The notes under the pieces were generated by a model, which ran no database searches, had not been told where the DNA came from, and worked only from the letters and a program-made list of their open reading frames with translations. Positions 2,037 to 63,650 of a stretch of DNA of 64,000 nucleotides are shown piece by piece. Each line of letters opens with the position of its first letter. Position 1 is the first letter of the stretch. The DNA is taken from contig CP129473.1 of the NCBI GenBank assembly GCA_030583745.1, forward strand, positions 552,211 through 616,210. Reading direction: 5' to 3'. The stretch comes from Minisyncoccota bacterium (lineage in GTDB: Bacteria; Patescibacteriota; Minisyncoccia; Phycocordibacterales; BOKC01). Made by a program: the position numbers and the translations under genes.

Positions 2037-4143
2037 TGTTTGATAATTTGTTTTTTATGAAATCCGGATCAGCTTCTTTCAGTGAAAGCTTTATCCTGTC
2101 TCTTTCGTCAATCTCTTTAATTATAACAGGTATTTTTTCTCCTAGACTTAAAACTTTTTCTATTCTTTCAATTCTTGTCGGCGCGATTTCCGAAATATGT
2201 AATAAGCCCTCGGCGTTTACTCCAATCTTTACGAAAGCCCCGAACTCAACGATTTTTGTTATTTCGCCAATATATTTTTCCCCAGCTTTATATTCTTTTG
2301 TCATTTCCCTAACAATAATTGCGGCTTTTTCAGCCCCGCCGTTTTTGCCGGTGATGAAGACACTACCGTCGTCCTCAATGTCAATTTCCGTCTCGGTAGC
2401 TTCTCTGATTTGGTTTATGGTTTTGCCGCCAGAGCCGATGACTAGTCCAATTTGATCCGGCTTTATTTTGACTATGACAATTTCCGGAGCATTTGGTGAA
2501 ATTTTTTCACGAGGTTTAATAATTTCACTTTCTATTTTGTCTAAGATTTGCAATCTCGCTTCTTTACCCTTTTGGAGTGCTTCTATCAGAATCTTGAGTG
2601 GTACACCGTGGACTTTGACGTCCATCTGAACGGCTGTGATCCCTTCTCGCGTGCCGGCAACTTTGAAATCCATATCCCCATGATGGTCTTCTGGGCCTTG
2701 AATATCGGTCAGGATTTTATACTTTTCTTCATTTTCCATCATAAGTCCGACTGCGATGCCGGCCACCGGTCTTTTTATTGGAACTCCGCCGTCCATTAAG
2801 GCCAAAGTGCCGGCGCAGACTGAAGCCATTGAGGTTGAGCCGTTGGAAGCAAAGCATTCCGAGACCAGACGAATCGTGTAAGGAAAATCTTCTTTGCTCG
2901 GCAAGACGGCAGACAAAGCTTTTTCTGCCAAAGCGCCGTGGCCGATCATTCGTCGGTTAAAACCGCCAACTCGTCCGGTTTCGCCTGTTGAAAATGGCGG
3001 GAAGTTGTAGTGATGCATAAATCTTTTCTGGGATTGGAATTCCATGGCATCTATTATCTGCGAGTCGCTTGGCCCGCCGAGCGTCAAAGCCGAGAAAACA
3101 TGCGTTCCGCCTCGGTAGAAAATTCCTGATCCGTGGAGAATTGGTGAAATTCCTCCGGCCTTAGCAAAAATCGGCCGGATTTCATCAAGTTTTCTACCAT
3201 CAGCTCGTTTTTCTTTTTCAATTGCCTCTTTGTGGATAAGTTCGTTGGTTTTTTCTTCGTAATATTCTTTGGCCAAATTAATATCAATTCCTGGCGCTTC
3301 TTTAACAAAAGTTTCAATCCATATTTCTCCTAGTTCGGAGATTTTTTCCTTAGAACCGCTAAAAAGATATTCCGACATTTTTTCTTTGATATGTTTGTCA
3401 AAAACTTCAGTCAATTCTTTTGGAAATTCGGCTTTTTCCACCAACATTTTTTCTTGGCCGATTTCTTTTATGATATTTTTTTGAAATTCTTGGAGTTTAT
3501 TGATTTCTGTCAAAGCTAGCTCAAAAGCTTCGGCGAGTTCGCCTTCTTTTATCTCTAATGCTCCAACCTCAATCATATTTATGCTGTTTTCTTTTCCACA
3601 ACAGAGAATATCAGCGATAGAATTTTCCTCGCGCTCTTTATAAGTCGGATTTACCTTTAAGCGAGAATCGTCTTGGTTTTTGCCGATTCTGACAGCGCTG
3701 ACTGGCCCGTTCCACGGAACTTTTGAGGTGCCCAAAGCCAAAGAGGCACCAATAACTGCTAAAACATCCGGATCGTATTCGCCGAGCGACAAAACGGTGA
3801 TGATGACTTGAACTTCGTGTCGAATATGTTGTTCAAACAGCGGTCTTATGGTTCTATCAACTATTCTGCCGGATAGGATCGCTTCTTCAGTTGGTCTCCC
3901 CTCTCTTTTGTTAAAACGTCCGCCTAGAATTTTGCCGACAGCGTAGAATTTTTCTTCAAAATCAACGGTTAAAGGGAAAAAATCTATGTTGTCTTTGGGG
4001 TATTTTGAGATTACGGATGTTGCCAGAATTACGGTGTCACCCATTCGTACCATTACCGAACCATTGGCTTGATCGGCCAAATTATTGAATTCAACTGATA
4101 GCTTTTGACCGGCGAGATCAAGCTCGTATTCTTTTTTGTCCAT
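1996..4143 (-). CDS. pnp: polynucleotide phosphorylase (PNPase)
   Basis: 715 aa with two RNase PH-like domains followed by KH and S1 C-terminal domains (GEKYIGEITKIVEFGAFVKI...). Confidence 0.9.
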   Translation of the reverse strand: MDKKEYELDLAGQKLSVEFNNLADQANGSVMVRMGDTVILATSVISKYPKDNIDFFPLTVDFEEKFYAVGKILGGRFNKREGRPTEEAILSGRIVDRTIRPLFEQHIRHEVQVIITVLSLGEYDPDVLAVIGASLALGTSKVPWNGPVSAVRIGKNQDDSRLKVNPTYKEREENSIADILCCGKENSINMIEVGALEIKEGELAEAFELALTEINKLQEFQKNIIKEIGQEKMLVEKAEFPKELTEVFDKHIKEKMSEYLFSGSKEKISELGEIWIETFVKEAPGIDINLAKEYYEEKTNELIHKEAIEKEKRADGRKLDEIRPIFAKAGGISPILHGSGIFYRGGTHVFSALTLGGPSDSQIIDAMEFQSQKRFMHHYNFPPFSTGETGRVGGFNRRMIGHGALAEKALSAVLPSKEDFPYTIRLVSECFASNGSTSMASVCAGTLALMDGGVPIKRPVAGIAVGLMMENEEKYKILTDIQGPEDHHGDMDFKVAGTREGITAVQMDVKVHGVPLKILIEALQKGKEARLQILDKIESEIIKPREKISPNAPEIVIVKIKPDQIGLVIGSGGKTINQIREATETEIDIEDDGSVFITGKNGGAEKAAIIVREMTKEYKAGEKYIGEITKIVEFGAFVKIGVNAEGLLHISEIAPTRIERIEKVLSLGEKIPVIIKEIDERDRIKLSLKEADPDFIKNKLSNNDSRKPEMDTGRK

Positions 4144-4351
4144 TTTCTTAACTCGCCTTCGGATTCTAGTTAGAAACCTGAAAGGGGTTTCTCCCTATCA
4201 CCGAAGACCAGTAATTATGAGTAATAAGAAAAATATAACAGATTATCCACTTTTCTGCCATTTTCAAAACCGTTTTTGTATTTTTTGTTATAATAAGATT
4301 GTTATTAATTAAAAACGGTCGATTAAATTTTATCAGCTACTTTTACAAAAA

Positions 4352-4606
4352 ATGAAAAATAGCGCTTTAAATTGGATTGTCTGGATTTTGTTGGTTGTCG
4401 GTGGTCTTAATTGGGGTTTGGTTGGCCTCGGTTCTTTCATGGGTGGCAACTGGAATGTCGTCAACTGGATTTTCGGTTCATGGCCACTTGTTGAGGGCTT
4501 GGTTTATGTTTTGGTCGGTCTTGCTGCAGTTCTTTTTGTTTTCAGCGGCCGATGTCGTACCTGCATGCCGAAAGGTTCCCAAGGCGGATCTGCTCCGATG
4601 GCTTAG
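4352..4606 (+). CDS. DUF378-family small membrane protein
   Basis: 84 aa; the VGGLNWGLVG motif is typical of DUF378; two TM helices. Confidence 0.6.
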   Translation: MKNSALNWIVWILLVVGGLNWGLVGLGSFMGGNWNVVNWIFGSWPLVEGLVYVLVGLAAVLFVFSGRCRTCMPKGSQGGSAPMA

Positions 4607-4700
4607 TTTTACTTGAATTTCAGCCGTAGTTGATCCGAACTCCGATTCGTTTTTTTGGGTCGGGGTTCGGCGACACGGTATTTTTTACGCTTAATACTTT

Positions 4701-5903
4701 ATGTTGGAAAAAATTTCCAACCTGTCTTTTAAAAAGGAAGATGGCGGAAGCGACATCTTAGAGATTTTGATAAAAGAAGCTTTTGAGTTGAATGCTTCAG
4801 ACATCCACATTGATCCGACAAGTACCTATTTGAATATTCGTTTCAGAATAGATGGTGGCTTATACAGACTACCCTCTGTTGATTTGGAAAAACATTCTGA
4901 AATCATTTCTAGAATTAAGATTTTGGCTGGTTTGCGGATTGACGAAAGAAGAAAGGCGCAAGATGGGCGGATGCGCTTGGAATTTCCAGGTGGTAAATTT
5001 GTTGATATCCGAATTTCAATGGTCCCCTCTTTTCACGGTGAGAGTGCTGTTTTAAGAATGCTCTATGATCGGGACGAGGCAATGAATCTTTCCTTTTTAG
5101 GTTTTGGAGACGAGAATCTTTTAAAAATAGAGAGGGCGATAAAGAAGACTGGGGGTATGATTTTATCAACGGGTCCGACTGGTTCGGGGAAAACCACCAC
5201 CTTATATTCCATACTTAAGGTCTTGAATAGAGAAGATGTTTCAATCGTTACTATAGAGGAACCGGTTGAATATTCTATCCCAAATATAAGGCAGATTCAG
5301 GTTGATTACGGTTGCCAATTAAATTTTGCCAATGGTCTGCGCTCTATTTTGCGGCAAGACCCAAATATAATAATGGTTGGTGAAATTCGTGATAAAGAAA
5401 CTGCCCAAATTGCTGTTAACGCAGCCCTTACTGGTCACCTCTTACTCTCAACTTTGCACACCAACGACTCCGTGGCCACCTTGCCACGGCTCATTGATAT
5501 GGGCGTTGAACCTTTTCTCTTGGCGTCAACTTTTAATTTGGCAATCAACCAAAGACTTGTCAAAAAGATTTGTCAAAATTGTAAAGCTGAAATGGAGATA
5601 AAAGATAAACAAAAGCGCTCGCTTGAGGAACTTTTGGGTCAAGCTTTACCCGACTCACCCTTTTACAAGGGTTTAGGATGTGAAATGTGCCACAAAAGCG
5701 GATATTCTGGTCGGACTTTGGTTGCAGAAGTTTTAAGCGTGGATGAAGAAATTCGCCGGCTTGTTATCGATAAAAAATCAGCCGGGGAAATCAGGCGAAT
5801 AGCGATAAAAAACGGGATGACACCACTACTTCACGATGGAATTTTAAAAGCTTCTCTTGGTATCACTACATTAGAAGAGGCTTTGCGTGTTGGTTATGAA
5901 TAA
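4701..5903 (+). CDS. pilB: GspE/PilB-family type IV pilus / T2SS assembly ATPase, short form lacking the N-terminal GSPII_E_N domain
   Basis: Walker A GPTGSGKTTTLYS, Asp/His boxes, and a tetracysteine motif (CQNC...CEMC) typical of PilB/GspE rather than PilT. Confidence 0.85.
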   Translation: MLEKISNLSFKKEDGGSDILEILIKEAFELNASDIHIDPTSTYLNIRFRIDGGLYRLPSVDLEKHSEIISRIKILAGLRIDERRKAQDGRMRLEFPGGKFVDIRISMVPSFHGESAVLRMLYDRDEAMNLSFLGFGDENLLKIERAIKKTGGMILSTGPTGSGKTTTLYSILKVLNREDVSIVTIEEPVEYSIPNIRQIQVDYGCQLNFANGLRSILRQDPNIIMVGEIRDKETAQIAVNAALTGHLLLSTLHTNDSVATLPRLIDMGVEPFLLASTFNLAINQRLVKKICQNCKAEMEIKDKQKRSLEELLGQALPDSPFYKGLGCEMCHKSGYSGRTLVAEVLSVDEEIRRLVIDKKSAGEIRRIAIKNGMTPLLHDGILKASLGITTLEEALRVGYE

Positions 5904-13507: not shown

Positions 13508-13536
13508 CATCCTGCTAAAAGCAGGATGTTTTTGTT
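13508..13536 (+). terminator. rho-independent terminator after hup
   Basis: CATCCTGC-TAAAA-GCAGGATG hairpin followed by TTTTTGTTTT. Confidence 0.7.
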
Positions 13537-13538
13537 TT

Positions 13539-13982
13539 GGTGCGGGATGGGAGAATCGGTCACAAATATTTTGCTTCGCAAAATTTCGCTACCCCGTCTC
13601 GCTCTCGCCTTCGGCGAGAAGCTCCGACCTTCGATTCTCCACGCAGGCAAAGCAGTTTGCCTGCTCATCCCTTCCTCACTACGTTCGGTGCGGGATGGGA
13701 GAATCGGTCACAAATATTTTGCTTCGCAAAATTTCGCTACCCCGTCTCGCTCTCGCCTTTGGCGAGAAGCTCCGACCTTCGATTCTCCACGCAGGCAAAG
13801 CAGTTTGCCTGCTCATCCCTTCCTCACTACGTTCGGTGCGGGATGGGAGAATCGGTCACAAATATTTTGCTTCGCAAAATTTCGCTACCCCGTCTCGCTC
13901 TCGCCTTTGGCGAGAAGCTCCGACCTTCGATTCTCCACGCAGGCAAAGCAGTTTGCCTGCTCATCCCTTCCTCACTACGTTC
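13539..13982. repeat. 3 tandem copies of a 148-bp unit; each unit begins with the 20-nt 3' end of the adjacent tRNA-Gly(UCC)
   Basis: Unit starts at 13539, 13687 and 13835. They are near-identical, with one difference seen (ccttcgg in the first unit, cctttgg in the later two). The first 20 nt of each (ggtgcgggatgggagaatcg) equal the reverse complement of the tRNA 3' end at 13983..14002. Confidence 0.9.
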
Positions 13983-14055
13983 GGTGCGGGATGGGAGAAT
14001 CGAACTCCCGACCGCGGTTTGGAAAACCGCTATTATACCATTTAACTAATCCCGC
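13981..14055 (-). tRNA. tRNA-Gly (anticodon UCC)
   Basis: The minus-strand sequence GCGGGAT-TA-GTTAAATGGTATAAT-A-GCGGT-TTTCCAA-ACCGC-GGTC-GGGAG-TTCGATT-CTCCC-ATCCCGC-A-CC folds as a cloverleaf. The 7-nt anticodon loop TTTCCAA gives UCC. The terminal A of CCA is not encoded. Confidence 0.85.
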
Positions 14056-14387: not shown

Positions 14388-14714
14388 TCAATTATCAACA
14401 TCTAAAGCTTTCTGGAAGTCGTCATTTACATCCAACTTATTTGTTTTTTCTAAACCGCATGAGAGGCATTTGTGCAACAATAGATTTTTCTGGCTTCTCT
14501 TGAAAAAAGAAATCGGCTTCATGAGTCCACCGCAGTCCGAGCCCCTGTCCCCCGGGTTTATATCTACATGCCGGCTCCAAAGGCAAACGGGGCAATGATT
14601 GGTGTAGCCGTTTCCTTTCACAAACTGTCTGCAATTCAAACACTCAAAGTCCTCTATTTTTCTTTGAAATCTTTTCATTAAAACATTCATTGTTCTTGAG
14701 AAATATGCTAGCAT
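14388..14714 (-). CDS. RNHCP-domain protein
   Basis: GYTNHCPVCLWSRH matches the RNHCP signature; Cys-rich (CLNC..., CLSCGLEK). Confidence 0.65.
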   Translation of the reverse strand: MLAYFSRTMNVLMKRFQRKIEDFECLNCRQFVKGNGYTNHCPVCLWSRHVDINPGDRGSDCGGLMKPISFFKRSQKNLLLHKCLSCGLEKTNKLDVNDDFQKALDVDN

Positions 14715-14806: not shown

Positions 14807-14944
14807 ACGAAACGAAGTGGGGTGAGGGGTGAGCAAGCCAACTTCTTGGCCTGTGTTCGGAATAGAACGATGGAGCATGTTATGAGGGTGGGAAACACTC
14901 TCGGTGTCTCGATCAAATAAAGATTTGGTTTCTATCTAATTTTT

Positions 14945-15358
14945 CTATTCCGGCAGAATGTCCTCAATCATCCGGACTTTTGCTGTTTTTCGGTCCGGGC
15001 TTAATAGAATTGCAATTACCGCGAATTTCCAATCAGAATTTTCCATTTTATTTTGTAATAAATACGTTTGGACAGCCATGCCGATTCTCTTTATCTTATG
15101 CTTCTCGACTCTTTCTTCCGGCCGATTCAATTCCCTATCTTCTTTCTCAAGACTAGTTTTGACTTCAATGAAATAATAAAAAATGTCTTTTTTAGAGACA
15201 ATGTCTATTTCCCCAAATTTTCGTCTAAAATTACGATTAAGTATTTTATAACCCTTATTTTTGAGGAATTTGCAGGCAATTTCCTCACCTAACTCCCCTG
15301 TTTCTAAATGTTCCGGCAATTTTTTATTGTCTTTTTGACTTTTAAATGAAAATACCAT
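14945..15358 (-). CDS. yraN: UPF0102/YraN-family endonuclease-like protein
   Basis: GEIDIV...FIEVK pattern and overall 137-aa architecture typical of YraN. Confidence 0.7.
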   Translation of the reverse strand: MVFSFKSQKDNKKLPEHLETGELGEEIACKFLKNKGYKILNRNFRRKFGEIDIVSKKDIFYYFIEVKTSLEKEDRELNRPEERVEKHKIKRIGMAVQTYLLQNKMENSDWKFAVIAILLSPDRKTAKVRMIEDILPE

Positions 15359-15556
15359 TTTTACGGCTTAAACAAAGGATTTTTGGGTGAAAAATAATAA
15401 TTTTTTGTCCAATAAAATTTTGTCCTTTATGCACATTTCCCCAGAGTTATCCACAGATATTGTCGTTAAGAAGTTATATTTTGATGCTAGTGTGTCCGCA
15501 CGATAATTTTGTGATAGCGCACGGCACAGGGTAAAAACCAATGGTAAAAATTTAGT

Positions 15557-15628
15557 GTGCGGGTAGGGAGAATCGAACTCCCGTCTGATCCTTGGCAAGG
15601 ACCTGTCATACCACTAAACTATACCCGC
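15557..15628 (-). tRNA. tRNA-Gly (anticodon GCC)
   Basis: Minus-strand GCGGGTA...GGTCC-TTGCCAA-GGATC...GGGAG-TTCGATT-CTCCC-TACCCGC-A; the anticodon loop gives GCC. Confidence 0.85.
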
Positions 15629-15901
15629 AGTATCATTAAAACTTTTAACTTGTAAAAGTTAACGATAACCATAATAACAGAATAATAAATTCATTGTCCA
15701 GAGTAATTTGTTGTTAGTTTTGGTTATCGGTCATCATTTATTAGTTATTATAAACAATGTTTTTCTTTGTCGGAGTTCGGATTACTGAAATTCTAACGAA
15801 TTTCAGTCTTGGCGGCAAATTCTTTGTTCTTTTAAATTATTAAAAATGAAAAGACCACCGTTCGCTTTCGCTACTAGGCGGCCTGGCTGTGGAGGGATGT
15901 T

Positions 15902-16351
15902 CTACTCGTTCATTCCCACCATCTTCTTGAGCTCATGCAGTAAGCTCTTCTTCGGATTGGGATTGAGGTCGTTGCTGACGTCCCAACTTGCACCCGAGTG
16001 GATGATATGCAGGATGCGCTCACGCAACTTCATCACATCCTTCGCCGAAGTGCCCTGCACGGTTAAGATCAAGTTTCGAGAGCCGAACCGCAGAAGATGC
16101 TGATCGTTCTGTTCGTACTCCTTGAACCCATTGCGACACACTTGTCCATGTGCGTTGCCGAGGTAGAAGTAAGCTTCCAACGGCTCCTGGGGGCCGCGCC
16201 AACCCTCTCGCGGATCTGTGGAAGAGACATTAATCCCCATCCTCCAACTCACAGTCATCCCCTCCGGAACGACGAAGTCATCCGGCAGGGTGACGAACGA
16301 GAGTTTGCGGACGACTTCTCCTTCGCGATTCAAAAGAACTAGACTCGACAT
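15902..16351 (-). CDS. hypothetical 149-aa protein in a GC-rich (~55%) island; no recognisable family
   Basis: Uninterrupted 149-codon ORF; strong ribosome-binding site (AAAGGAG-7nt-ATG); sigma70-like promoter upstream; composition unlike the host. Confidence 0.6.
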   Translation of the reverse strand: MSSLVLLNREGEVVRKLSFVTLPDDFVVPEGMTVSWRMGINVSSTDPREGWRGPQEPLEAYFYLGNAHGQVCRNGFKEYEQNDQHLLRFGSRNLILTVQGTSAKDVMKLRERILHIIHSGASWDVSNDLNPNPKKSLLHELKKMVGMNE

Positions 16352-16440
16352 GGTACTACTCCTTTCTTCTTTGCGTCTTGAGTTGTCCCAAGATCGCTGA
16401 GTGAAGTGAACAAGCCATCATGGTGATTGCTCTAAATATT

Positions 16441-16468
16441 AGTATAGCAATTTATACTAGTTTGTCAA
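16441..16468 (-). promoter_or_regulatory. sigma70-like promoter TTGACA-N16-TATACT driving the GC-rich gene at 15902..16351
   Basis: Minus-strand reading: ccTTGACAaactagtataaattgcTATACTaat. Confidence 0.55.
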
Positions 16469-16547
16469 GGTTTCGTGAAGATAAAAAACAGCCATATTTC
16501 AGGTCATTTTTCACTCAAAAATCCAATGATTAACTTTTCCAACGCGG

Positions 16548-16619
16548 TGCCCCCGGCAGGAATTGAACCCACATCAACCGGTTCGAAGCCGGTTATTCTA
16601 TCCATTAAACTACGGGGGC
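16548..16619 (-). tRNA. tRNA-Arg (anticodon UCG)
   Basis: Minus-strand GCCCCCG-TA-GTTTAATGGATAGAAT-A-ACCGG-CTTCGAA-CCGGT...GGGTTCAATTCC...CGGGGGC-A-CC; the anticodon loop gives UCG. Confidence 0.8.
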
Positions 16620-16681
16620 GATGCCTAAAATTATATTGAAAAATTAGCGAAAAATCAAAGTCTGTAATAAAATTTAAGATT

Positions 16682-18169
16682 ATGCATCTGAACAATCCTA
16701 AAATTCCTAAGGAAATAATAAAAATTGCCGAAGAGTTGAAAAATGCCGGTTTTGAAGCTTATCTTGTGGGCGGTTGTGTTCGAGATTTGATTATTGGATT
16801 GAAACCGAAGGATTGGGATTTTGCCACCAATGCCCTACCCGACGAGATAATGAAGATTTTTAAAAACTCATTCTACGAAAATGAATACGGTACTGTCGGG
16901 GTTGTTAACGATTCGCCAGACGATGGAAATTTAGACGAGACTTTGAAAGTCGTAGAAATCACCCCCTACAGAGAAGAGACCGGCTATTCTGATTTTAGAA
17001 GGCCAGATGAAGTTAAGTTCGGGACAACATTGGAGAAAGACTTGAGCCGTAGGGATTTCACTATAAACGCCATAGCTCTAGACCCACATAAAGGACAAGT
17101 TATTGACCCATATAAAGGACAAGTTGATATAAAAGACAAAATTATAAAGGCCGTAGGCAAACCAGAAGAAAGATTTGGAGAAGACGGTTTAAGAATTCTA
17201 AGAGCTGTCCGTTTAGCTTCGGAGTTGGGATTTGAAATTGAAAAGCAAACAAGGACAGCGATTGTTTCCGGTTCGAGTTTCATAAGAAACATATCTCAAG
17301 AAAGGATAAGAGATGAGTTTTCTCGAATAATAATGTCAAAAAGCCCAGAAAATGGCCTTATTCTTTGCCAAGAGCTAGGTATTTTAAAAGAATTTTTACC
17401 AGAATTGGAAAGAGCTGTTGGGATAAAACAAAATAAAGCGCATTCTTACGATGTTTGGACGCACCTTTTAAAGAGTTTACAGCATGCAGCCAACAAAAAT
17501 ATGTCTTTTCACGTGAAACTATCAGCTCTATTCCACGATATTTCAAAGCCAAATACTAGGAGGTGGTCAGAAGAAAAAAAGGATTGGACTTTTTACGGTC
17601 ACGATGTTGTTGGTTCACGTGAAACAGAGAGAATATTAAAAAGACTGAAGTTTCCCGTGAAAACGGTTGAGAAAGTTTCTAAACTGGTTAGATGGCACAT
17701 GTTCTTTTCTGACACCGATAAAATAACACTTTCTGCGGTGAGAAGATTGGTTGCGAATGTGGGAAAAGAAGATATTTGGGAATTAATGGATTTAAGGTCT
17801 TGTGATCGAATAGGAACAGGGAGGCCAAAAGAAAGCCCATATAGATTAAGGAAATTCCATTCAATGATAGAAGAGGTTATTGCTGACCCAGTCTCTGTAT
17901 CTATGCTAAAGATAGATGGTGCGAGAATAATGGAAGTTACACAAGAAACACCCGGACCAAGAATAGGTTTTATTCTGCACGCACTACTTGAAGATGTTTT
18001 GGATGACCCGTCTTTAAATGATGAAAAATACTTAGAAAATAGGGCAGTTGAGCTATCAAAATTGGCAAATTCAGAACTTGAGAAGATAGGGCAAAGCGCA
18101 AAAGGTAGGAAGGAAGAGGAGGAAAACAAAAAATTGGCTGAAATTCGTGGAAAATACTATGTTAAATAG
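16682..18169 (+). CDS. cca: CCA-adding tRNA nucleotidyltransferase (class II) with an HD domain
   Basis: GGCVRDLIIG...DWDFAT head-domain motif and HD-domain His/Asp residues (HSYDVWTHLL, LFHDISKP). Confidence 0.85.
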   Translation: MHLNNPKIPKEIIKIAEELKNAGFEAYLVGGCVRDLIIGLKPKDWDFATNALPDEIMKIFKNSFYENEYGTVGVVNDSPDDGNLDETLKVVEITPYREETGYSDFRRPDEVKFGTTLEKDLSRRDFTINAIALDPHKGQVIDPYKGQVDIKDKIIKAVGKPEERFGEDGLRILRAVRLASELGFEIEKQTRTAIVSGSSFIRNISQERIRDEFSRIIMSKSPENGLILCQELGILKEFLPELERAVGIKQNKAHSYDVWTHLLKSLQHAANKNMSFHVKLSALFHDISKPNTRRWSEEKKDWTFYGHDVVGSRETERILKRLKFPVKTVEKVSKLVRWHMFFSDTDKITLSAVRRLVANVGKEDIWELMDLRSCDRIGTGRPKESPYRLRKFHSMIEEVIADPVSVSMLKIDGARIMEVTQETPGPRIGFILHALLEDVLDDPSLNDEKYLENRAVELSKLANSELEKIGQSAKGRKEEEENKKLAEIRGKYYVK

Positions 18170-18200
18170 CCAAGATACAGGTTTCACTTGAAACAGACAA

Positions 18201-18226
18201 AGCCTCGCGGTTGCGAGGCTTTTTTG
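18201..18226 (+). terminator. rho-independent terminator after cca
   Basis: AGCCTCGC-GGTT-GCGAGGCT hairpin followed by TTTTTTG. Confidence 0.7.
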
Positions 18227-18462
18227 TCTTTAATCGCCACGAGCAGAAATATCAGATAATTATACCTAGTTTTTAAGATGAAGTTTGTAGTGTGTATTTA
18301 TCGAACATCTCCGTTCGGGCGTTTTGCGGTTGAACCGCTGAAGAACAACATCTACTCGGCAACAGAGGTTGCCTAAAAGACATCCTTTTTAATTATACAA
18401 ATTAATAAAGGACATAAAAGTTTTTAAAGGACAAATATGTGGATAACTCGAACGAGTAATGA

Positions 18463-19233
18463 TTATTTGGCTATATTTAAAGAAATAGGGCAGTGGTCTG
18501 AACCAAAGATTTCGCTGTGTATTTTTGTTGAGATTAAATTTGGCATAAGATCTTGACTGGCAAAAAAATAATCAATTCTCCAACCAACATTTCGGTTTCT
18601 GGCAAAAGTTTTCATATCCCAGTAGGTGTAAGCTTCCTTTATGTCGGGGTAAAAATGACGAAATACATCCAAATATCCTCTTGCTATGACTTTGTCTATC
18701 CACGCGCGTTCTTCTGGAAGAAAACCTGTGTTTTTTGAATTTTCTCTTGGTCTGGCCAGATCAATTTCTTTGTGTGCGGTGTTTATATCTCCACAAAATA
18801 TGACAGAAAGCCCCATTTTTCTTAGATTTTCTGTGAATTTTAAGAATTCTTCGTAGAATTCAAGTTTGAATTTTAATCTATCCGGCCCGCTCCCGCCGTT
18901 TGGAAAATAGACATTTATTAAAGCTAAATCACCAAAATAAGCCGTTAAAAGCCGTCCTTCTTTATCAAATTTTTCTTGCCCCATTCCTTCTTCAACTGCG
19001 TCCGGTTTGTCTTTTGAATAAATGGCAACTCCGCTATAGCCCTTTTTTTCTTTGGAGTGGTCAAAAAAGCTGAAATATCCTTGAGGATTTCTGACCTCTT
19101 CCGGAAGTTGGTCTGGATGAGCTTTGGTCTCTTGAAGACAGAGAATATCGGGCTTTTCGTTCAAAAACCAATCCCAACAACCCTTTTTATAGCAAGCCCT
19201 TATGCCATTTACGTTCCAAGATATGATTTTCAC
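18463..19233 (-). CDS. xth: exodeoxyribonuclease III
   Basis: MKIISWNVNGIR...DILCLQETK and a C-terminal SDHCPI motif. Confidence 0.9.
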   Translation of the reverse strand: MKIISWNVNGIRACYKKGCWDWFLNEKPDILCLQETKAHPDQLPEEVRNPQGYFSFFDHSKEKKGYSGVAIYSKDKPDAVEEGMGQEKFDKEGRLLTAYFGDLALINVYFPNGGSGPDRLKFKLEFYEEFLKFTENLRKMGLSVIFCGDINTAHKEIDLARPRENSKNTGFLPEERAWIDKVIARGYLDVFRHFYPDIKEAYTYWDMKTFARNRNVGWRIDYFFASQDLMPNLISTKIHSEIFGSDHCPISLNIAK

Positions 19234-19425
19234 GGCTAAATGATAACACGGATGAAAATGAAAAACCGACCGCCCTTGTGCTTGGCAGTCTTGGATTCGG
19301 CGGAACCCAGTTTCTCTTTGGAGATTAAGATGACCACAAGCGGTGCCCTATTTTTGGCCATTTTTACACACATCCATTAAATCTAGTAAAAAGTGCCAAA
19401 AGTGTTTAGACATTACCTATTTTAA

Positions 19426-19453
19426 TTGACTTTTTGCTTTGTTTTGCTATAAT
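19426..19453 (+). promoter_or_regulatory. sigma70-like promoter TTGACT-N16-TATAAT
   Basis: aatTTGACTttttgctttgttttgcTATAATaaagg, upstream of the GC-rich lipoprotein gene. Confidence 0.55.
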
Positions 19454-19534
19454 AAAGGTAGATTTTTCGAAAACCTCTTGGACCTTCGGCTTGTTGCTGT
19501 TGGTTTCTTGAGAGACAAGAAAAAGGAGCGGGGA

Positions 19535-19789
19535 ATGAAAAGGCAAAGGCAGAAGTCCGCGCCTTTGGCGGCGGCAGGAACGCTACTGTTCGTGGTCGCG
19601 TTCGGTTCCGGCTGCTCAAATGCCGGGGAAGGTGCCTTGTCTGGCGCCGCGCTCGGGGCTCTGGCTGGAATGGGACTTGGGTCCCTTACCGGTAGCATGG
19701 GGCAGGGCGCGGCCGCCGGTGCGATCATCGGTGGCGTCGGGGGAGCAGTCATCGGCGACCAGAACAGTCGCCAGGAAAGGTACCGTTGA
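19535..19789 (+). CDS. OsmB-like glycine-zipper lipoprotein, GC-rich
   Basis: Lipobox LLFVVAFGSG-C-SN; Gly-zipper GALAGMGLGSLTGSMGQGAAAGAIIGGVGGAVIG; ribosome-binding site AAGGAG-6nt-ATG; ~65% GC over the coding region. Confidence 0.7.
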   Translation: MKRQRQKSAPLAAAGTLLFVVAFGSGCSNAGEGALSGAALGALAGMGLGSLTGSMGQGAAAGAIIGGVGGAVIGDQNSRQERYR

Positions 19790-21508: not shown

Positions 21509-22218
21509 TGATCAAACAAAAACATCTTTTTATCACTATTCTTGTTTTGGGTCTGTTCACTCTATCTTTACTTGCTGTAGCAGACACCACGAATTCTACA
21601 CAATCTCTTATTTCTAATTCTGAAACAGAAAAAGATGTTGTGGAGGGTAAATCAAAAACCACTAGTTCTAGCGACCCGATTCTCCCAATAATTACTGATA
21701 CACAAAAGCCAGCAACAACCTATACTCACCCAGAACTCGGTTATTCTTTTGAGTATTTATCAGATTGGTTGCTCGGCACTTATAAAAGCAACGGCTATGA
21801 GGCAGTAGGACTATGGGACCCCGTAGCACAACAGCAAGAGGGCGCGGAAGGCCATCTCATACAAGGGGCGAAGATTGAAATATCCACCTGCAACTGCGCT
21901 CCAATAAGTTCTTTCAAAAACACAATCGTAGAACGAACCGGAAAAGGCCCTGAAACAATAACCAGTGTTTCTGAATCAACCCTTAATATTTATAAGGACC
22001 AAACACCAGTATCAGTTGTAAGAGTAGATTACAAAACAGAACTCGGGGGAGGTAAAAGCGTATATTTTGTTGGTAGAGATGGATTGCTTTATGTGCTCAC
22101 TTTAGGGATTCCGAATCTTGAAACTTTGGGAACTGGCCAACTTCAAGAATACAGGTCTGTTTTTGAGGACGTGATTCAATCATTTACCTTTAGCGAAATT
22201 GCTTATGAAAACCACTAA
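21505..22218 (+). CDS. hypothetical secreted protein
   Basis: Signal-peptide-like N-terminus; 237 aa; start and stop overlap the neighbouring genes. Confidence 0.5.
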   Translation: MMIKQKHLFITILVLGLFTLSLLAVADTTNSTQSLISNSETEKDVVEGKSKTTSSSDPILPIITDTQKPATTYTHPELGYSFEYLSDWLLGTYKSNGYEAVGLWDPVAQQQEGAEGHLIQGAKIEISTCNCAPISSFKNTIVERTGKGPETITSVSESTLNIYKDQTPVSVVRVDYKTELGGGKSVYFVGRDGLLYVLTLGIPNLETLGTGQLQEYRSVFEDVIQSFTFSEIAYENH

Positions 22219-25200
22219 GATATTAAGCATAATTTTTGGAACACTCATTTTCTTTGCTGTAGTTTTATCTGTTTTTGCCAACCCAAGAATATTATATCTA
22301 CCTTTTACTGATCTTGAAGTTTTTCTCAAGCACGGATGGTACTATGATGAACAGGAAACAGATGAGCATAAAGGAATAGATTATTTCAAAGGACAGTCAG
22401 GAAACTGGCAAGAGTTTGAAATTCTCGCTGTGGCGGGAGGAGTAGCTGAGTATAGACCAAATGGTAGTCCAACGTGGGGTAATTATGTTGTTATTGACCA
22501 TCAAACCGGCTCACCCCCTTATTATACCGTTTACGCTCATCTAGAAAGCTCACCCTTACCCGCTTATACACAAACGGCAGTTAATGAAGGTGATTTAATA
22601 GGTATTGCTGGTGCTACTGGGTTCACCGATCCACCGGGAACAGTTCATCTACATCTTGAATGGTCAAAGGACGGAATAGGGCAGTTTGGTACTAAACTTG
22701 ATCCTTATGGGATTAAAAAATATTACACATATTATCCTGGTTATCCAAATTTTATAGATTGTGGCATTGACCTTCAAAATCCAGGTGTTTTCTGGTGGAC
22801 AGAATGTCCGCCGATTCCACCTGGTGGAGGCGGGGATGATCCACTTCCGGTAATAAATGTTTCCGGAAATATCACCGAAGACACAACATGGAAAGCGGGG
22901 TATGTGTATTTAATTCAGGGGTCAGTGACGGTGGTTGAAAATGTAACTTTAACTTTAGAGCCCGGAGTAATCGTCAAATTTCAAAACACCTCCTCCCGCT
23001 TCAACATCTACGGAAACCTCTACGCCCAAGGAACCCAACAAAACAAAATCCACTTCACCTCATACAAAGACGATACGGTCGGCGGTGATTCAAACGGAGA
23101 TGGCAACAATTCATCGCCGGCTCCCAGCAATTGGCGGCAAATCACTGTCTTTGAGAATGGTTCAGCCGATCTTTCCCACGCCGTCTTGCGCTATGGCGGC
23201 TACACTTGCGCCTACTGCGGCATCAATCCCGGAGGTCTTTTAGTGGACGGCGGACAACTTACCCTCGCCGACACTTTGATTGAGAAGAACAATTATGGGA
23301 TATATTTCAAAAACATCACCGGCACTACAAGCATTTCCAACTCCACCATTTCTAACAACACTTCTTATGGCATCTTCTCAACCGGCGGCAACCACGACAT
23401 ATATCTCTCCAACTCCACCATCTCCAACCATTCCGATACCGGTATCTATGCTTCCGCCAGCGCCACAACTACTGTTTCGCTTTTGAACAATACTTTCCAG
23501 AACAACCAAACAAGAGACGGTTACTTTTCCATTTCCAACATTAACTTCATCAACCAAGGGAACACTACTTCAGGCACCGGAGGCAACGGCTTCCACATTT
23601 CAGGCACTCTTTTAGGCAACCAAATCTGGAACCCTGGTGTCCCTTACATTATCAGCACCGTCACCTTACCGGCCGATACCACTCTCACAATTAACCCCAA
23701 TACCATCGTCAAATTTCAAAACACCTCCTCCCGCTTCAACATCTACGGAAACCTCTACGCCCAAGGAACCCAACAAAACAAAATCCACTTCACCTCATAC
23801 AAAGACGATACGGTCGGCGGTGATTCAAACGGAGATGGCAACAATTCATCGCCGGCTCCCAGCAATTGGCGGCAAATCACTGTCTTTGAGAATGGTTCAG
23901 CCGATCTTTCCCACGCCGTCTTGCGCTATGGCGGCTACACTTGCGCCTACTGCGGCATCAATCCCGGAGGTCTTTTAGTGGACGGCGGACAACTTACCCT
24001 CGCCGACACTTTGATTGAGAAGAACAATTATGGGATATATTTCAAAAACATCACCGGCACTACAAGCATTTCCAACTCCACCATTTCTAACAACACTTCT
24101 TATGGCATCTTCTCAACCGGCGGCAACCACGACATATATCTCTCCAACTCCACCATCTCCAACCATTCCGATACCGGTATCTATGCTTCCGCCAGCGCCA
24201 CAACTACTGTTTCGCTTTTGAACAATACTTTCCAGAACAACCAAACAAGAGACGGTTACTTTTCCATTTCCAACATTAACTTCATCAACCAAGGGAACAC
24301 TACTTCAGGCACCGGAGGCAACGGCTTCCACATTTCAGGCACTCTTTTAGGCAACCAAATCTGGAACCCTGGTGTCCCTTACATTATCAGCACCGTCACC
24401 TTACCGGCCGATACCACTCTCACAATTAACCCCAATACCATCGTCAAATTTCAAAACACCTCCTCCCGCTTCAACATCTACGGAAACCTCTACGCCCAAG
24501 GAACCCAACAAAACAAAATCTACTTCACCTCATACAAAGACGATACGGTCGGCGGTGATTCAAACGGAGATGGCAACAATTCATCGCCGGCTCCCAGCAA
24601 TTGGCGGCAAATCACTGTCTTTGAGAATGGTTCAGCCGATCTTTCCCACGCCGTCTTGCGCTATGGCGGCTACACTTGCGCCTACTGCGGCATCAATCCC
24701 GGAGGTCTTTTAGTGGACGGCGGACAACTTACCCTCGCCGACACTTTGATTGAGAAGAACAATTATGGGATATATTTCAAAAACATCACCGGCACTACAA
24801 GCATTTCCAACTCCACCATTTCTAACAACACTTCTTATGGCATCTTCTCAACCGGCGGCAACCACGACATATATCTCTCCAACTCCACCATCTCCAACCA
24901 TTCCGATACCGGTATCTATGCTTCCGCCAGCGCCACAACTACTGTTTCGCTTTTGAACAATACTTTCCAGAACAACCAAACAAGAGACGGTTACTTTTCC
25001 ATTTCCAACATTAACTTCATCAACCAAGGGAACACTACTTCAGGCACCGGAGGCAACGGCTTCCACATTTCAGGCACTCTTTTAGGCAACCAAATCTGGA
25101 ACCCTGGTGTCCCTTACATTATCAGCACCGTCACCTTACCGGCCGATACCACTCTCACAATTAACCCCAATACCATCGTCAAATTTCAAAACACCTCCTC

Positions 25201-25756
25201 CCGCTTCAACATCTACGGAAACCTCTACGCCCAAGGAACCCAACAAAACAAAATCTACTTCACCTCTTACCGAGACGACACAATCGGAGGTGACTCCAAC
25301 GGAGATGGCAACAATTCATCGCCGGCTCCCAGCAATTGGCGGCAAATCACTGTCTTTGAGAATGGTTCAGCCGATCTTTCCCACGCCGTCTTGCGCTATG
25401 GCGGCTACACTTGCGCCTACTGCGGCATCAATCCCGGAGGTCTTTTAGTGGACGGCGGACAACTTACCCTCGCCGACACTTTGATTGAGAAGAACAATTA
25501 TGGGATCTACCGGCGGACTAGCGGTAATGTTTCCGTCACTCAAAGCTCAATTAAAGAGAATACCTCCTACGGCATATATCACACCGGCACCGGGACAACG
25601 ACCGCCACTTCAAACTGGTGGGGAGATCCGAGCGGGCCTTATCATCCGCAAAACAATCCAAACGGACAAGGCGACAGAGTCTCAAATAATGTGGAATTCA
25701 GCTCCTGGTTAATTGAGGATCCTTTTTGGAAACAATTTATATTTCCCAAAAAGTAG
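22199..25756 (+). CDS. giant secreted protein: N-terminal M23 (LytM) peptidase domain followed by tandem right-handed beta-helix (NosD/pectin-lyase-like) repeats
   Basis: HKGIDYF...VVIDHQ...HLHLEW M23 zinc-site motifs. Three identical 245-aa repeats rich in NxT/S and I-Y-G/S-N-T-I-S-N rungs. Confidence 0.75.
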   Translation: MLMKTTKILSIIFGTLIFFAVVLSVFANPRILYLPFTDLEVFLKHGWYYDEQETDEHKGIDYFKGQSGNWQEFEILAVAGGVAEYRPNGSPTWGNYVVIDHQTGSPPYYTVYAHLESSPLPAYTQTAVNEGDLIGIAGATGFTDPPGTVHLHLEWSKDGIGQFGTKLDPYGIKKYYTYYPGYPNFIDCGIDLQNPGVFWWTECPPIPPGGGGDDPLPVINVSGNITEDTTWKAGYVYLIQGSVTVVENVTLTLEPGVIVKFQNTSSRFNIYGNLYAQGTQQNKIHFTSYKDDTVGGDSNGDGNNSSPAPSNWRQITVFENGSADLSHAVLRYGGYTCAYCGINPGGLLVDGGQLTLADTLIEKNNYGIYFKNITGTTSISNSTISNNTSYGIFSTGGNHDIYLSNSTISNHSDTGIYASASATTTVSLLNNTFQNNQTRDGYFSISNINFINQGNTTSGTGGNGFHISGTLLGNQIWNPGVPYIISTVTLPADTTLTINPNTIVKFQNTSSRFNIYGNLYAQGTQQNKIHFTSYKDDTVGGDSNGDGNNSSPAPSNWRQITVFENGSADLSHAVLRYGGYTCAYCGINPGGLLVDGGQLTLADTLIEKNNYGIYFKNITGTTSISNSTISNNTSYGIFSTGGNHDIYLSNSTISNHSDTGIYASASATTTVSLLNNTFQNNQTRDGYFSISNINFINQGNTTSGTGGNGFHISGTLLGNQIWNPGVPYIISTVTLPADTTLTINPNTIVKFQNTSSRFNIYGNLYAQGTQQNKIYFTSYKDDTVGGDSNGDGNNSSPAPSNWRQITVFENGSADLSHAVLRYGGYTCAYCGINPGGLLVDGGQLTLADTLIEKNNYGIYFKNITGTTSISNSTISNNTSYGIFSTGGNHDIYLSNSTISNHSDTGIYASASATTTVSLLNNTFQNNQTRDGYFSISNINFINQGNTTSGTGGNGFHISGTLLGNQIWNPGVPYIISTVTLPADTTLTINPNTIVKFQNTSSRFNIYGNLYAQGTQQNKIYFTSYRDDTIGGDSNGDGNNSSPAPSNWRQITVFENGSADLSHAVLRYGGYTCAYCGINPGGLLVDGGQLTLADTLIEKNNYGIYRRTSGNVSVTQSSIKENTSYGIYHTGTGTTTATSNWWGDPSGPYHPQNNPNGQGDRVSNNVEFSSWLIEDPFWKQFIFPKK
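22970..25505. repeat. 735-bp tandem repeat: 3 essentially identical copies (22970, 23705, 24440) plus a diverged partial 4th copy (25175..~25505)
   Basis: Period 735 nt (245 codons). Copies 1-2 differ from copies 3-4 by one SNP (CAC/TAC, His/Tyr). The 4th copy carries a ~40-nt patch with 9 mostly synonymous substitutions. Confidence 0.95.
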
Positions 25757-62795: not shown

Positions 62796-63245
62796 ATGAG
62801 GTATCTCAGTGAGAAGCGTCGTCAGCGGTTCGCCCGGGAATTTCCGGGGTTGGATCAGATCCCCGGTTTCAAATGGGCGTCGATCAAGAAGTTCGACGTC
62901 CAGCGTGTCAGTCCGTTCCTTCTTCAGGGAGGAGGGATTATCATGGATGATCACAGAACGGTCTTCTACGTTGTCTACAATGGAGCGATGACGCGCCTGG
63001 ATGCCAATGTGATCTTCGATCCTTCCTCTGATCGGCGGCCGAGCATTTACGTGCGGTCTAATGGAGAGCAGATTTTTCAGATCAGTTCCAGACCGCCAGA
63101 CTTCATCGTTGAGATCCGCAGCGAATGGGATTCCCACGGTAATTCCATTGATGTCTGCATTATCTACAAGGCCGACAAGTTCGACTGGGATGGATACTTC
63201 AAGCGTTTCGAGCCTGGACCGGAGAAGTTCGAGCAGTTCGTCTGA
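62796..63245 (+). CDS. hypothetical 149-aa protein, GC-rich (~54%), no recognisable family
   Basis: Ribosome-binding site AAGGAG-6nt-ATG; uninterrupted ORF; followed by an intrinsic terminator; enterobacterial-style codon choices (CGT, CGG, CTG, CCG). Confidence 0.6.
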   Translation: MRYLSEKRRQRFAREFPGLDQIPGFKWASIKKFDVQRVSPFLLQGGGIIMDDHRTVFYVVYNGAMTRLDANVIFDPSSDRRPSIYVRSNGEQIFQISSRPPDFIVEIRSEWDSHGNSIDVCIIYKADKFDWDGYFKRFEPGPEKFEQFV

Positions 63246-63294
63246 TGACAGCCAGCAACGGCAAAACGTTCTCGATTGACGTCTAAACAATCGA

Positions 63295-63326
63295 AGCCCC
63301 GACCATCTGGCCGGGGTTTTCTTTTG
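63295..63326 (+). terminator. rho-independent terminator
   Basis: AGCCCCGACC-atctg-GCCGGGGTT followed by a T-tract. Confidence 0.65.
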
Positions 63327-63407
63327 TATTTTCCTAAACCCTACACCCCAAACCCTAAACCTCACTGGCTATACCCCAGACCCTATACCCTAATTTAAGA
63401 CCTACGG

Positions 63408-63489
63408 CAAGGTTAAACCTCCCAGAGAAAATACTGCTTAACAAAGCGATATTTTTCTTACACCTAATTGTCAAGGTTTAACCTTGACA
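63408..63489. promoter_or_regulatory. two operator-like palindromes (AGGTTAAACCT at 63410..63420; TGTCAAGGTT-T-AACCTTGACA at 63469..63489) upstream of the terminal membrane-protein gene
   Basis: Perfect 21-nt palindrome and a related 11-nt palindrome ~60 nt apart; a TTGACA -35 box at 63511..63516 follows. Confidence 0.5.
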
Positions 63490-63650
63490 GTGCTTACGCC
63501 TTTATTTTTCTTGACATTGCAATTAAATTGTACTATCCTTAAAAAGGATACGGAAAAACATGTGGTTTTCCGACAAAGTTTGTCATCCGGTTTGCCTAGC
63601 TCCATGTAGGAGTTAGCGCTGAAATAGTCAAGAGACAAAAGGAGATAAAG

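Follow-up and report, generated by a model that had tools for sequence, protein, structure and literature searches.

The question raised by this locus is whether a small GC-rich patch between two tRNA genes is a piece of foreign DNA and, if so, what it encodes and by which route it came to lie there. The patch belongs to a 64,000-nt stretch from a Minisyncoccota bacterium (contig CP129473.1, positions 552,211 to 616,210; here called the window, meaning this stretch at its full length). An earlier note, made from the sequence alone, had described it as an islet at a tRNA hot spot, with a single minus-strand open reading frame (ORF) of 149 amino acids (aa) under a promoter of its own. According to our analysis, the patch is a real, horizontally acquired cassette at the 3' end of tRNA-Arg(UCG) in a tiny-genome Patescibacteria bacterium, and our overall verdict is that of a moron-like, non-autonomous mobile cassette. 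Horizontal acquisition at a tRNA hot spot is supported by an empty or differently filled slot in relatives, by foreign composition and by the association with tRNA genes. The location between tRNA-Gly(GCC) and tRNA-Arg(UCG) had been recognised correctly; the extent had not, since the cassette covers 15759-16545 and is larger than the 15846-16470 given at first. Its features are the following.

15459..16546, no strand assigned: segment differing from the same-species contig L043 and comprising, besides the cassette, a spacer rich in AT and another allele of tRNA-Gly(GCC)
15557..15628, minus strand: tRNA-Gly(GCC), the boundary on the far side (ARAGORN; Rfam)
15759-16545, minus strand: the compositionally foreign cassette, about 0.8 kb
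15759..15844, minus strand: right-arm remnant, shared with loci L005, L007, L015, L017, L018, L019, L022 and L037
15845..15884, minus strand: intrinsic terminator, hairpin GGCCGCC-UAGUA-GC-GAAA-GC-GAAC-GGUGGUC (15852-15884) and U-rich tract, fold of -14.8 kcal/mol
15902..16351, minus strand: 149-aa ORF starting MSSLVLLNREGEVV..., supported by codon periodicity, dN/dS (ratio of nonsynonymous to synonymous changes) and homologues
16352..16434, minus strand: 5' untranslated region (UTR) of about 82 nt, two hairpins and a single-stranded stretch
16356..16421, minus strand: upstream ORF of 21 codons, MMACSLHSAILGQLKTQRRKE and a stop, present in the window and not conserved as a frame
16373-16397, minus strand: hairpin 2, GCG-A-UCUUGGG-ACAA-CUCAAGA-CGC, the loop also given as ACCA (alignment and RNAfold)
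16408-16432, minus strand: hairpin 1, consensus GAACAUGCC-AUGGU-GGCUUGUUC (alignment and RNAfold)
16441..16468, minus strand: sigma-70-type promoter TTGACA-16-TATACT with extended -10 TG (TGnTATACT), 11 of 12 matches in the scan
16469..16545, minus strand: left arm, beginning directly past the tRNA end (..GGGGGCACCG / CGTTGGAAAAGTTAAT..)
16546..16619, minus strand: tRNA-Arg(UCG) (ARAGORN; Rfam 65.9 bits)

The slot beside tRNA-Arg(UCG)

Counted in 200-bp windows, the GC content is 0.47-0.57 across 15800-16399 versus 0.30-0.40 on either side, and the ORF has a GC content of about 0.54 versus 0.408 for the whole 64 kb. The enriched patch noticed earlier is therefore real, with the trivial corrections that the background is about 41% and not 38%, and the ORF about 54% and not 55%. 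When the windowed GC and codon check proposed in the earlier note was run against 23 long ORFs of the window, the GC content was 0.537 versus 0.414±0.026 (maximum 0.475), and both the GC content at third codon positions (0.685 versus 0.377±0.038, maximum 0.529) and a measure resembling the codon adaptation index, derived from the same 23 ORFs (0.547 versus 0.723±0.023, minimum 0.682), were far outside the host range, the latter about seven standard deviations under host genes.

The indication of acquisition that we regard as decisive comes from empty sites. Three related contigs (L040, L042 and L043), fetched with the CCA-adding enzyme as a handle, allowed the syntenic intervals from tRNA-Gly to tRNA-Arg to be compared. 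L043, a variant present in SRR34423825, belongs to the same species, its CCA-adding enzyme being 99% identical and its flanks 97-98% identical at the DNA level. It shares tRNA-Arg(tcg) and the YraN gene, and between them it has a different gene, of 225 aa, and a different tRNA-Gly(gcc) allele. By blastn, L043 is matched by positions 14872-15458 of the window (98.5%) and again by 16547-19290 (97.3%), the interval between them giving no match, and the homology breaks at 16546/16547, that is at the 3' end of tRNA-Arg. The slot is empty in L042 (CCA-adding enzyme 71%), where tRNA-Arg(tcg) and tRNA-Gly(gcc) lie 122 bp apart, and likewise in L040 (79%), where Gly-gcc, Arg-ccg and Arg-tcg are spaced 88-89 bp. 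Close relatives thus lack the gene, and neither a host-like copy in a related genome nor homology to a common protein, both of which the earlier note had named as evidence to the contrary, was found. Judged from these alignments, the hot spot that holds the cassette varies between strains and has one fixed edge, the 3' end of tRNA-Arg.

Both flanking tRNAs are encoded on the minus strand, as is the ORF, and the tRNA-Arg(UCG) end is the left junction of the cassette as well as of the strain-variable segment. The left arm terminates in a degenerate terminator-like hairpin and a T-run just ahead of the -35 hexamer. The right arm contains a palindrome with a computed fold, ACUGAAAUUC-GUUA-GAAUUUCAGU at 15784-15807, whose sequence is altered in L017/L037 and in L005, yet with the pairing kept; compared with relatives, the right arm of the window is cut off after ..AAAGAAAAAC (~15759). 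A conserved sequence at 15402-15458 borders the variable segment. A perfect DnaA box, TTATCCACA, is found at about 15448-15456, where the strain-variable segment has its left edge and upstream of the YraN-like gene; the short block around it (reading TGTGGATAACTCTGGGGAAATGTG on the opposite strand) is conserved among L040, L042 and L043. The neighbouring genes in the window encode RNase Y, HU, YraN, the CCA-adding enzyme, ExoIII and S15.

Other inserts were seen in the related contigs. The 225-aa gene in the slot of L043 (2646-3323) encodes an N-terminal helix-turn-helix (HTH), for which Pfam gave only a weak HTH_SB match, and by eye a LAGLIDADG-like YWGEGDK; a homing endonuclease could not be confirmed. 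Where this insert starts, 33-36 nt (GCCGAAATACGTTCGGACTAATTCAAGAATACTG) are common to it and to the distal part of the right arm in loci with the cassette. L043 also carries a Fic and HTH_17 pair (859-1577), inserted after tRNA-Pro and without counterpart in the window. In L040, a 135-aa ORF (4490-4897) between tRNA-Arg(tcg) and the CCA-adding enzyme gene displays CxxC pairs and EFDH...N...CANCH, by eye an HNH-type pattern, for which Pfam and the Protein Data Bank (PDB) returned nothing significant. The 225-aa and 135-aa genes as homing endonucleases thus remained unconfirmed by Pfam and PDB searches.

Elsewhere in the window, a second GC-rich spot (19439-19789, up to 0.675) corresponds to a 116-aa glycine-zipper protein (Pfam Gly-zipper_Omp); because this gene is also present in the sister strain, its GC content is ascribed to Gly and Ala codons and not to foreign origin. 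The GC content is also raised (0.47-0.50) at 22199-25756 and 63000-64000, the former with a strongly negative GC skew and coinciding with one plus-strand ORF of 1185 aa.

Promoter, leader and terminator

The promoter reported earlier, TTGACA-N16-TATACT, was found again with 11 of 12 matches, preceded by TG, and 16468..16441 was the best-scoring site of the region in a promoter scan. In 28 aligned leader sequences, TTGAC and TGCTAnnAT are conserved and the spacer is variable. At the DNA level (up to 28 loci), conservation begins at the -35 hexamer and then runs through the almost invariant leader of about 82 nt.

The two hairpins of the leader are well supported by covariation. In an alignment of 26 loci, 93.7% of the cells are paired and 10 of the 18 pairs reveal double-sided changes; none of 500 shuffles matched the observed values, and slid registers paired at 30-48%. 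Some cells of helix 1 that appear unpaired, those of the window included, result from a 2-nt register shift in the alignment, and RNAfold shows the hairpin intact. On the 3' side of hairpin 2 follows an unpaired, A-rich stretch, CAAAGAAGAAAGGAG-N7-AUG, with an open Shine-Dalgarno sequence (16359-16364); the ribosome-binding site described before is indeed there, AAAGGAG at 16359-16364, 7 nt 5' of the ATG. Because CAAAGAAGAAAGGAG-N7-AUG is unpaired, the leader looks made for stability and efficient initiation and not for occlusion. A leader that sequesters the Shine-Dalgarno sequence was considered and rejected, as the weak pairing in the window fold is not conserved and relatives have GGAGCAG.

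The short upstream ORF, to which the earlier note had also drawn attention, exists in the window, but does not hold up as a coding feature. Its ATG sits in the loop of hairpin 1 and is replaced by GTG, ATA or GTC in relatives, 5-nt indels between the hairpins shift its frame, and its stop, GGAGTAG, is GGAGCAG in most copies. The frame-breaking indels rule out a conserved upstream ORF or leader peptide; we judge this ORF to be a by-product of the conserved structured RNA leader, non-functional as coding sequence.

At the other end of the transcript, about 17 nt past the stop codon, GGCCGCC-UAGUA-GC-GAAA-GC-GAAC-GGCGGCC is followed by a U tract. A pattern search of 19 loci recovered this terminator hairpin in 18, the remaining locus having a divergent form; the stem displays compensations from G-C to A-U and from C-G to U-A, with the apical part unchanged. 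Its AGUA/GAA internal loop, capped by a GNRA tetraloop, appears to resemble a loop-E/sarcin-ricin module. Among 15 main-clade copies, the 3' hairpin has a mean pairwise identity of 94% and the final 50 nt of the leader one of 83%, compared with 58% at four-fold sites, and since the UTRs thus exceed four-fold-site conservation, the RNA elements are under selection of their own. For leader, terminator and arms no Rfam family was found at the gathering threshold, only tRNAs passing. The leader and 3'-hairpin motifs occur a single time in each locus that has them, always with this gene, and the leader motif occurs once in the 64 kb.

Taken by its signals, the cassette is one autonomous minus-strand transcription unit consisting of promoter, leader, ORF and terminator, and that it is an acquired autonomous expression cassette we consider very probable. 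Its expression would be constitutive and strong and its protein abundant. Protection of the mRNA probably falls to hairpin 1 at its 5' end, while the open A-rich Shine-Dalgarno region would drive initiation; the hairpins may in this way serve host-independent mRNA stability and translation, and are possibly binding sites for the protein itself.

The protein and its distribution

The 149-aa minus-strand ORF is present at 15902-16351 as described before, and exactly this protein is annotated as hypothetical protein QY304_03025 in a metagenome-assembled genome of Candidatus Paceibacterota. Among 23 complete copies, differences amount to 0.31/0.24/0.50 at codon positions 1/2/3, the third being the most variable, the frame is intact throughout, and indels are multiples of three. 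The dN/dS versus the window copy is 0.19-0.38, indicating purifying selection.

The earlier note had seen no recognisable family. This is true of curated libraries, but 73 homologue clusters exist, with 50-75% identity, a length of about 145 aa and, in all cases, no name or the label "hypothetical". The remote-homology and structure searches proposed at the time were run and found no known family: for the window protein and 43 diverse members, Pfam, NCBIfam, PHROGs and PADLOC gave nothing below an E-value of about 0.004 and no family matched by more than one member, and the best E-value against the PDB, by sequence and by profile, was 0.25. A profile search of 1.84 billion representatives revealed 56 proteins, 54 of them short (71-192 aa) and matching in a single stretch; the two exceptions were weak multi-stretch matches to much longer proteins. 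Six database entries (P0004, P0010, P0021, P0053, P0055 and P0070; 169-195 aa) are 20-45 residues overlong, the gene callers having begun inside the conserved leader; P0070 starts MPWWLLIPLAILGPLKTQRRKEYVM, which is translated hairpin 2 and ribosome-binding site.

Only 10 of 185,579 species genomes carry the family, all of them Patescibacteria, and the carrier groups comprise Uhr-, Harrison-, Lipton-, Vogel-, Jorgensen- and Kerfeldbacteria, Saccharibacteria and Elulimicrobium. Identity ignores taxonomy: an Uhrbacteria copy reaches 74%, a Vogelbacteria copy 58% and a Jorgensenbacteria copy 54%. The synonymous divergence (dS) to copies in Uhr-, Lipton- and Harrisonbacteria is only 0.66-0.9, and the adjacent housekeeping CCA-adding enzyme is already down to 60-65% among Paceibacterota-type relatives. 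As in the window, the GC content is higher in the gene than in its flanks at each of the ten genome loci. Annotated contexts vary (ribosomal protein genes, ScpAB, FtsEX, CofD, BipA), and an all-against-all comparison of flanking ORFs across loci revealed no recurrent partner gene. We found no tblastn match in phage (INPHARED) or plasmid collections and no match of the protein or the UTR motifs in IMG/VR; with PHROGs equally silent, a phage or plasmid origin was rejected. Five distant members (L010, L012, L013, L033 and L035) keep the protein, with ordinary terminators and divergent leaders.

The protein is composed of a globular alpha/beta domain (residues 1-128), an NDLNPxPK linker and a cationic amphipathic C-terminal helix. 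The AlphaFold2 model has a mean predicted local distance difference test score of 87.6, with a low-confidence linker and tail and a terminal helix predicted at 136-145; it is predicted to run from an N-terminal beta-hairpin through a long antiparallel sheet to C-terminal helices, and Foldseek listed no neighbour for this confident model. Among the 43 diverse members only G11 and P57 are invariant, and, apart from Q99 and N127, the near-invariant positions have hydrophobic residues, Pro or Gly. The conserved residues are thus mostly hydrophobic and do not look like those of an active site.

At the C-terminus, the conserved linker, NDLNP(K/R)P(K/R), is followed by a short cationic amphipathic segment such as GFLQRLMGK, GLLQRLKKMVG, GFFRFIKSLF or GIWRWIKRQ. 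Across the family the tail has a net charge of +3 to +6 and a hydrophobic moment of 0.4-1.0, and it stays amphipathic even where its sequence diverges. The membrane-targeting tail of E. coli MinD is KKGFLKRLFGG. Because the tail pattern resembles it, the protein is probably a peripheral membrane protein, attached to the membrane through its C-terminal tail. As in the anchors of MinD and FtsA, K(K/R)GFLQRLMGK or GLLQRLKKMVG would stand at the extreme C-terminus after a flexible Pro/Lys linker, while the globular domain is unrelated to the MinD ATPase. No catalytic-type residue is conserved and the Pro/Lys linker leads into a cationic amphipathic helix, which together suggest a non-enzymatic peripheral membrane protein.

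Route of spread, function and rival explanations

In how far the cassette belongs to tRNA ends was examined at 26 distinct loci with enough upstream sequence, counting tRNAs within 800 bp. A same-strand tRNA ends 150-785 bp upstream in ten of them, with ten different anticodons, whereas 2.7% would be expected from the tRNA density elsewhere in the same loci (binomial P ~6e-10). Where the cassette has its long form, nothing separates the left arm from the CCA end of the tRNA, which may be Leu-tag, Met or Arg-tcg. The left arm of the window is conserved with that of L022, which follows a different tRNA, and similar starts were seen in L008, L037 and L005. The left junctions read as follows, the slash marking the tRNA end.

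Window: ..CACCG/CGTTGGAAAAGTTAAT
L022, tRNA-Leu(tag): ..CACCA/CGTTGGAAAAGTTAATGCC
L008: ..CACCA/CGTAGGGAAGATTGATGCC
L037: ..GCGCCA/CCTAGGAAAAGTCGAAG

Bracketing repeats were found in two relatives. In L018, a perfect 29-nt repeat, GGTGAGGCCGCTTCCTACCGGGGGCACCA, which closely resembles the 3' end of the window tRNA-Arg, brackets a unit of 1028 bp, and in L037 a 48-nt repeat (73%) brackets 966 bp. An IS30-family element lies immediately past the right-hand direct repeat of the L037 cassette (3708-4755; 335-aa transposase with HTH_38). A link between this element and the cassette was dismissed, since the element is bounded by 20-nt inverted repeats of its own and was inserted separately.

Shorter elements were also observed at tRNA ends. 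In the window, downstream of tRNA-Gly(tcc) (13983-14055), positions 13536-14002 (minus strand) hold three tandem units of 148 bp, 99% identical, each made of a 129-nt GC-rich element (GAACGTAGTGAGGAAGGGATGAGCAGGCAAACTGCTTTGCCTGC...) and a 19-nt copy of the tRNA 3' end, GATTCTCCCATCCCGCACC, so that the end of tRNA-Gly(tcc) is present four times ahead of the native terminator. These units look like a miniature element with repeats resembling attachment (att) sites, amplified threefold; Rfam gave sub-threshold GA-cis matches within them (21.6 bits versus 34.7). Related short elements, starting GAACG(A/T)AGTGAGG and followed by a GC hairpin, stand directly after other tRNA 3' ends (L042 ~800-870 after tRNA-Gly(gcc), L018 34-130, L006 2550-2982 and L008 3628-3788). 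L006 and L008 have inserts of 150-420 nt that are bracketed by 16-17-nt tRNA-end repeats and contain inverted T-arm fragments. All this suggests a family of tRNA-end-associated mini-elements in Patescibacteria that would share the left-arm junction motif of the cassette. The literature on Patescibacteria tRNA islands and on the GA-cis motif yielded nothing usable. A 108-aa RNHCP-domain protein (14388-14714; Pfam E 5e-26) is encoded within the same cluster of tRNA genes, between tRNA-Gly(tcc) and tRNA-Pro.

How, then, did the cassette come to its place? It would move between genomes as naked DNA or on larger elements and become fixed at tRNA 3' ends, for which two routes are conceivable. A trans-acting site-specific recombinase could act on att sites at tRNA ends, and the repeats of L018 and L037 point in this direction. 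Alternatively, homologous or homology-facilitated replacement could be anchored on the conserved tRNA and on 15402-15458, and the co-replaced tRNA-Gly allele points to that route. In the window, the distal end and any attR would have been deleted; since there is no distal repeat here, we infer integration from the relatives only.

The comparison with known systems places the cassette close to two of them. Phage morons are described as independent transcription units spread horizontally among phage genomes (PMC3594210). Like a moron, the cassette is a single ORF with its own promoter and intrinsic terminator, of a composition that differs from its surroundings, horizontally spread and dispensable, small accessory cargo being the usual case. 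Unlike morons, it lies outside any prophage, with no phage genes nearby, in cellular Patescibacteria chromosomes at tRNA 3' ends, and its UTRs are conserved RNA structures. It shares with tRNA-targeted islands a junction that coincides exactly with the 3' end of a tRNA, strain-to-strain polymorphism in presence and in cargo, and direct repeats resembling the tRNA 3' end that bracket the unit in relatives (perfect over 29 nt in L018, partly so in L037). Such islands have integrase-less derivatives that are bounded by att sites and mobilised in trans. In contrast to the typical island, the cassette is only about 0.8-1.0 kb long, with one gene and no integrase match, the distal repeat (attR) is absent in the window, and ten different tRNAs are used across the family.

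Several observations weigh against the picture of a non-autonomous mobile cassette with a membrane-bound, protective product. No nearby upstream tRNA was found for 16 of the 26 loci, and the window contains no direct repeat of the tRNA-Arg 3' end on the far side. No recombinase is linked to the cassette in any locus, and elsewhere in the genome none was looked for. The variable segment also holds a different tRNA-Gly allele, for which replacement through homologous recombination would account no less well than site-specific integration. The putative membrane anchor is proposed from a sequence pattern and its likeness to the MinD tail, and for the function there is neither a PADLOC or PHROG match nor a defence-island context.

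Concerning this function, our best guess, guided by what phage morons and small islets carry, is a protective or exclusion-type accessory role, directed for instance at phage, foreign DNA or a competitor. That the protein belongs to a class with such a benefit, or is simply addictive, appears possible but rather doubtful. It differs from type II or III toxin-antitoxin systems in having no conserved neighbour, no tandem repeats in the leader and no PADLOC match.

A self-mobile unit would be the most radical alternative: the cassette would be an autonomous minimal mobile element, and the 149-aa protein itself a new recombinase or homing protein targeting tRNA 3' ends. Protein and hairpins (5' hairpin 2, the loop-E-like 3' hairpin and the right-arm palindrome) would then mediate their own insertion at tRNA ends, with the 129-nt elements as non-coding relatives or sites. 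It is true that the 149-aa gene alone always travels with the unit, that att-like repeats bracket it in L018 and L037, that the same slot in the sister strain holds another stand-alone gene with an N-terminal HTH, and that the neighbouring gap of a relative has an ORF with, by eye, an HNH-like CxxC..DH..N..CxxCH. IS200, an insertion sequence of about 0.7 kb, has a single ORF of about 150 aa and a structured leader. The cassette recalls it in size (~0.8-1 kb), in its single small ORF and in the hairpins around the transcript start, including the terminator-like hairpin upstream. Yet none of the 43 members matches a nuclease, recombinase or transposase family, neither the Y1/HUH transposase of IS200 (Pfam Y1_Tnp) nor the LAGLIDADG, GIY-YIG, HNH or PD-(D/E)xK domains of free-standing homing endonucleases. 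With only G11 and P57 invariant, there is no conserved constellation of Ser, Tyr, His, Asp, Glu or Lys and no acidic, His or Lys catalytic candidate. The leader leaves the ribosome-binding site open instead of sequestering it, leader and 3'-hairpin motifs are single in every locus searched, the leader occurring once in the whole window, a membrane-type tail would be odd for a DNA enzyme, and the slot neighbours were not confirmed as endonucleases. Since no conserved residue looks catalytic, we regard a self-mobile recombinase as quite unlikely, and insertion by protein and hairpins together as no less so. An integron-type gene cassette, or one moved by an analogous recombination at hairpin sites and near tRNAs by chance, would also be a one-gene mobile unit. 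The Kerfeldbacteria locus L014 has the gene among four consecutive single-gene units in tandem, each followed by a 49-nt imperfect palindrome AAC..GTT at spacings of 943, 904 and 572 bp, and elsewhere the right-arm palindrome varies in sequence with the pairing kept. These L014 palindromes, AACAGCGCGTATACGAT..ATCGTATACGCGCAAACGTT at 2720-2768, 3663-3711, 4567-4615 and 5139-5187, one per small gene, are either attC-like or REP-like (repetitive extragenic palindromic), and no integrase was found within 8.4 kb. Neither the window nor most loci contain such palindromes, attC-type core sites were not recognised in the window, the locus flanks examined contain no integron integrase, the cassette has a strong promoter of its own, unlike typical integron cassettes, and the tRNA association is far above chance; we consider this explanation very unlikely.

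The conserved RNA structures could also be understood differently, with the protein as an RNA-binding autoregulator or RNA-localising factor, 5' hairpin 2 and the 3' hairpin of its own mRNA as targets, and the RNA-protein pair as the functional unit. The loops are conserved beyond pairing (ACCA-type loop, UAGUA/GAAC internal loop, GAAA tetraloop), the UTRs are more conserved than synonymous sites, and the order of secondary structures superficially recalls that of RNA-phage coat proteins. Foldseek listed no coat protein or other RNA-binding fold, however, the five distant members keep the protein with ordinary terminators and divergent leaders, and selection for portable strong expression explains the conserved UTRs equally, so that we hold this possibility to be unlikely. 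An old, vertically inherited Patescibacteria gene of odd composition and with many losses would agree with the spread of the family over several Patescibacteria classes and with purifying selection. The presence in only 10 of 185,579 species, the absence at this site from the same-species contig and two close relatives, the unrelated neighbourhoods, a similarity that does not follow taxonomy with a dS of only 0.7-0.9 between classes, and a codon usage about seven standard deviations from host genes make it highly improbable. GC islands in AT-rich genomes are often structured non-coding RNA genes. A GC island flanked by same-strand tRNA genes, with UTR hairpins that are real RNA structures, could be taken for one with a fortuitous ORF, but this is refuted by the codon-periodic substitutions (0.31/0.24/0.50) and the dN/dS of 0.2-0.4; together with the frame intact in 23 complete copies and the lack of an Rfam match, they leave it practically no credit. 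A horizontally acquired, non-autonomous single-gene cassette at 15759-16545, lodged at the 3' end of tRNA-Arg(UCG), thus stays, together with what we propose on its mobility and function, the account we favour with somewhat better than even confidence.

A small foreign islet at a tRNA is an ordinary phenomenon; the particulars are new. They comprise a Patescibacteria-wide single-gene cassette with a fixed promoter-leader-terminator chassis, a pair of RNA motifs, one in the 5'UTR and one in the 3'UTR, that Rfam does not contain, an orphan protein family whose confidently predicted structure has no neighbour in Foldseek and whose tail is putatively MinD-like, and an integrase-less spread to many different tRNA 3' ends. 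Patescibacteria (Candidate Phyla Radiation, CPR) have tiny genomes, and their gene exchange and accessory genes are little understood. With at least ten independent locations at tRNA 3' ends, and with variation among strains of a single species, the cassette offers a clean, tractable case of inter-class gene flow in this group, and the miniature tRNA-end elements may mark the responsible recombination system. The portable set of promoter, leader and terminator could be put to use as a module for gene expression in organisms that are difficult to engineer, and should the protein be protective or drive its own mobility, the interest of the cassette would rise sharply.

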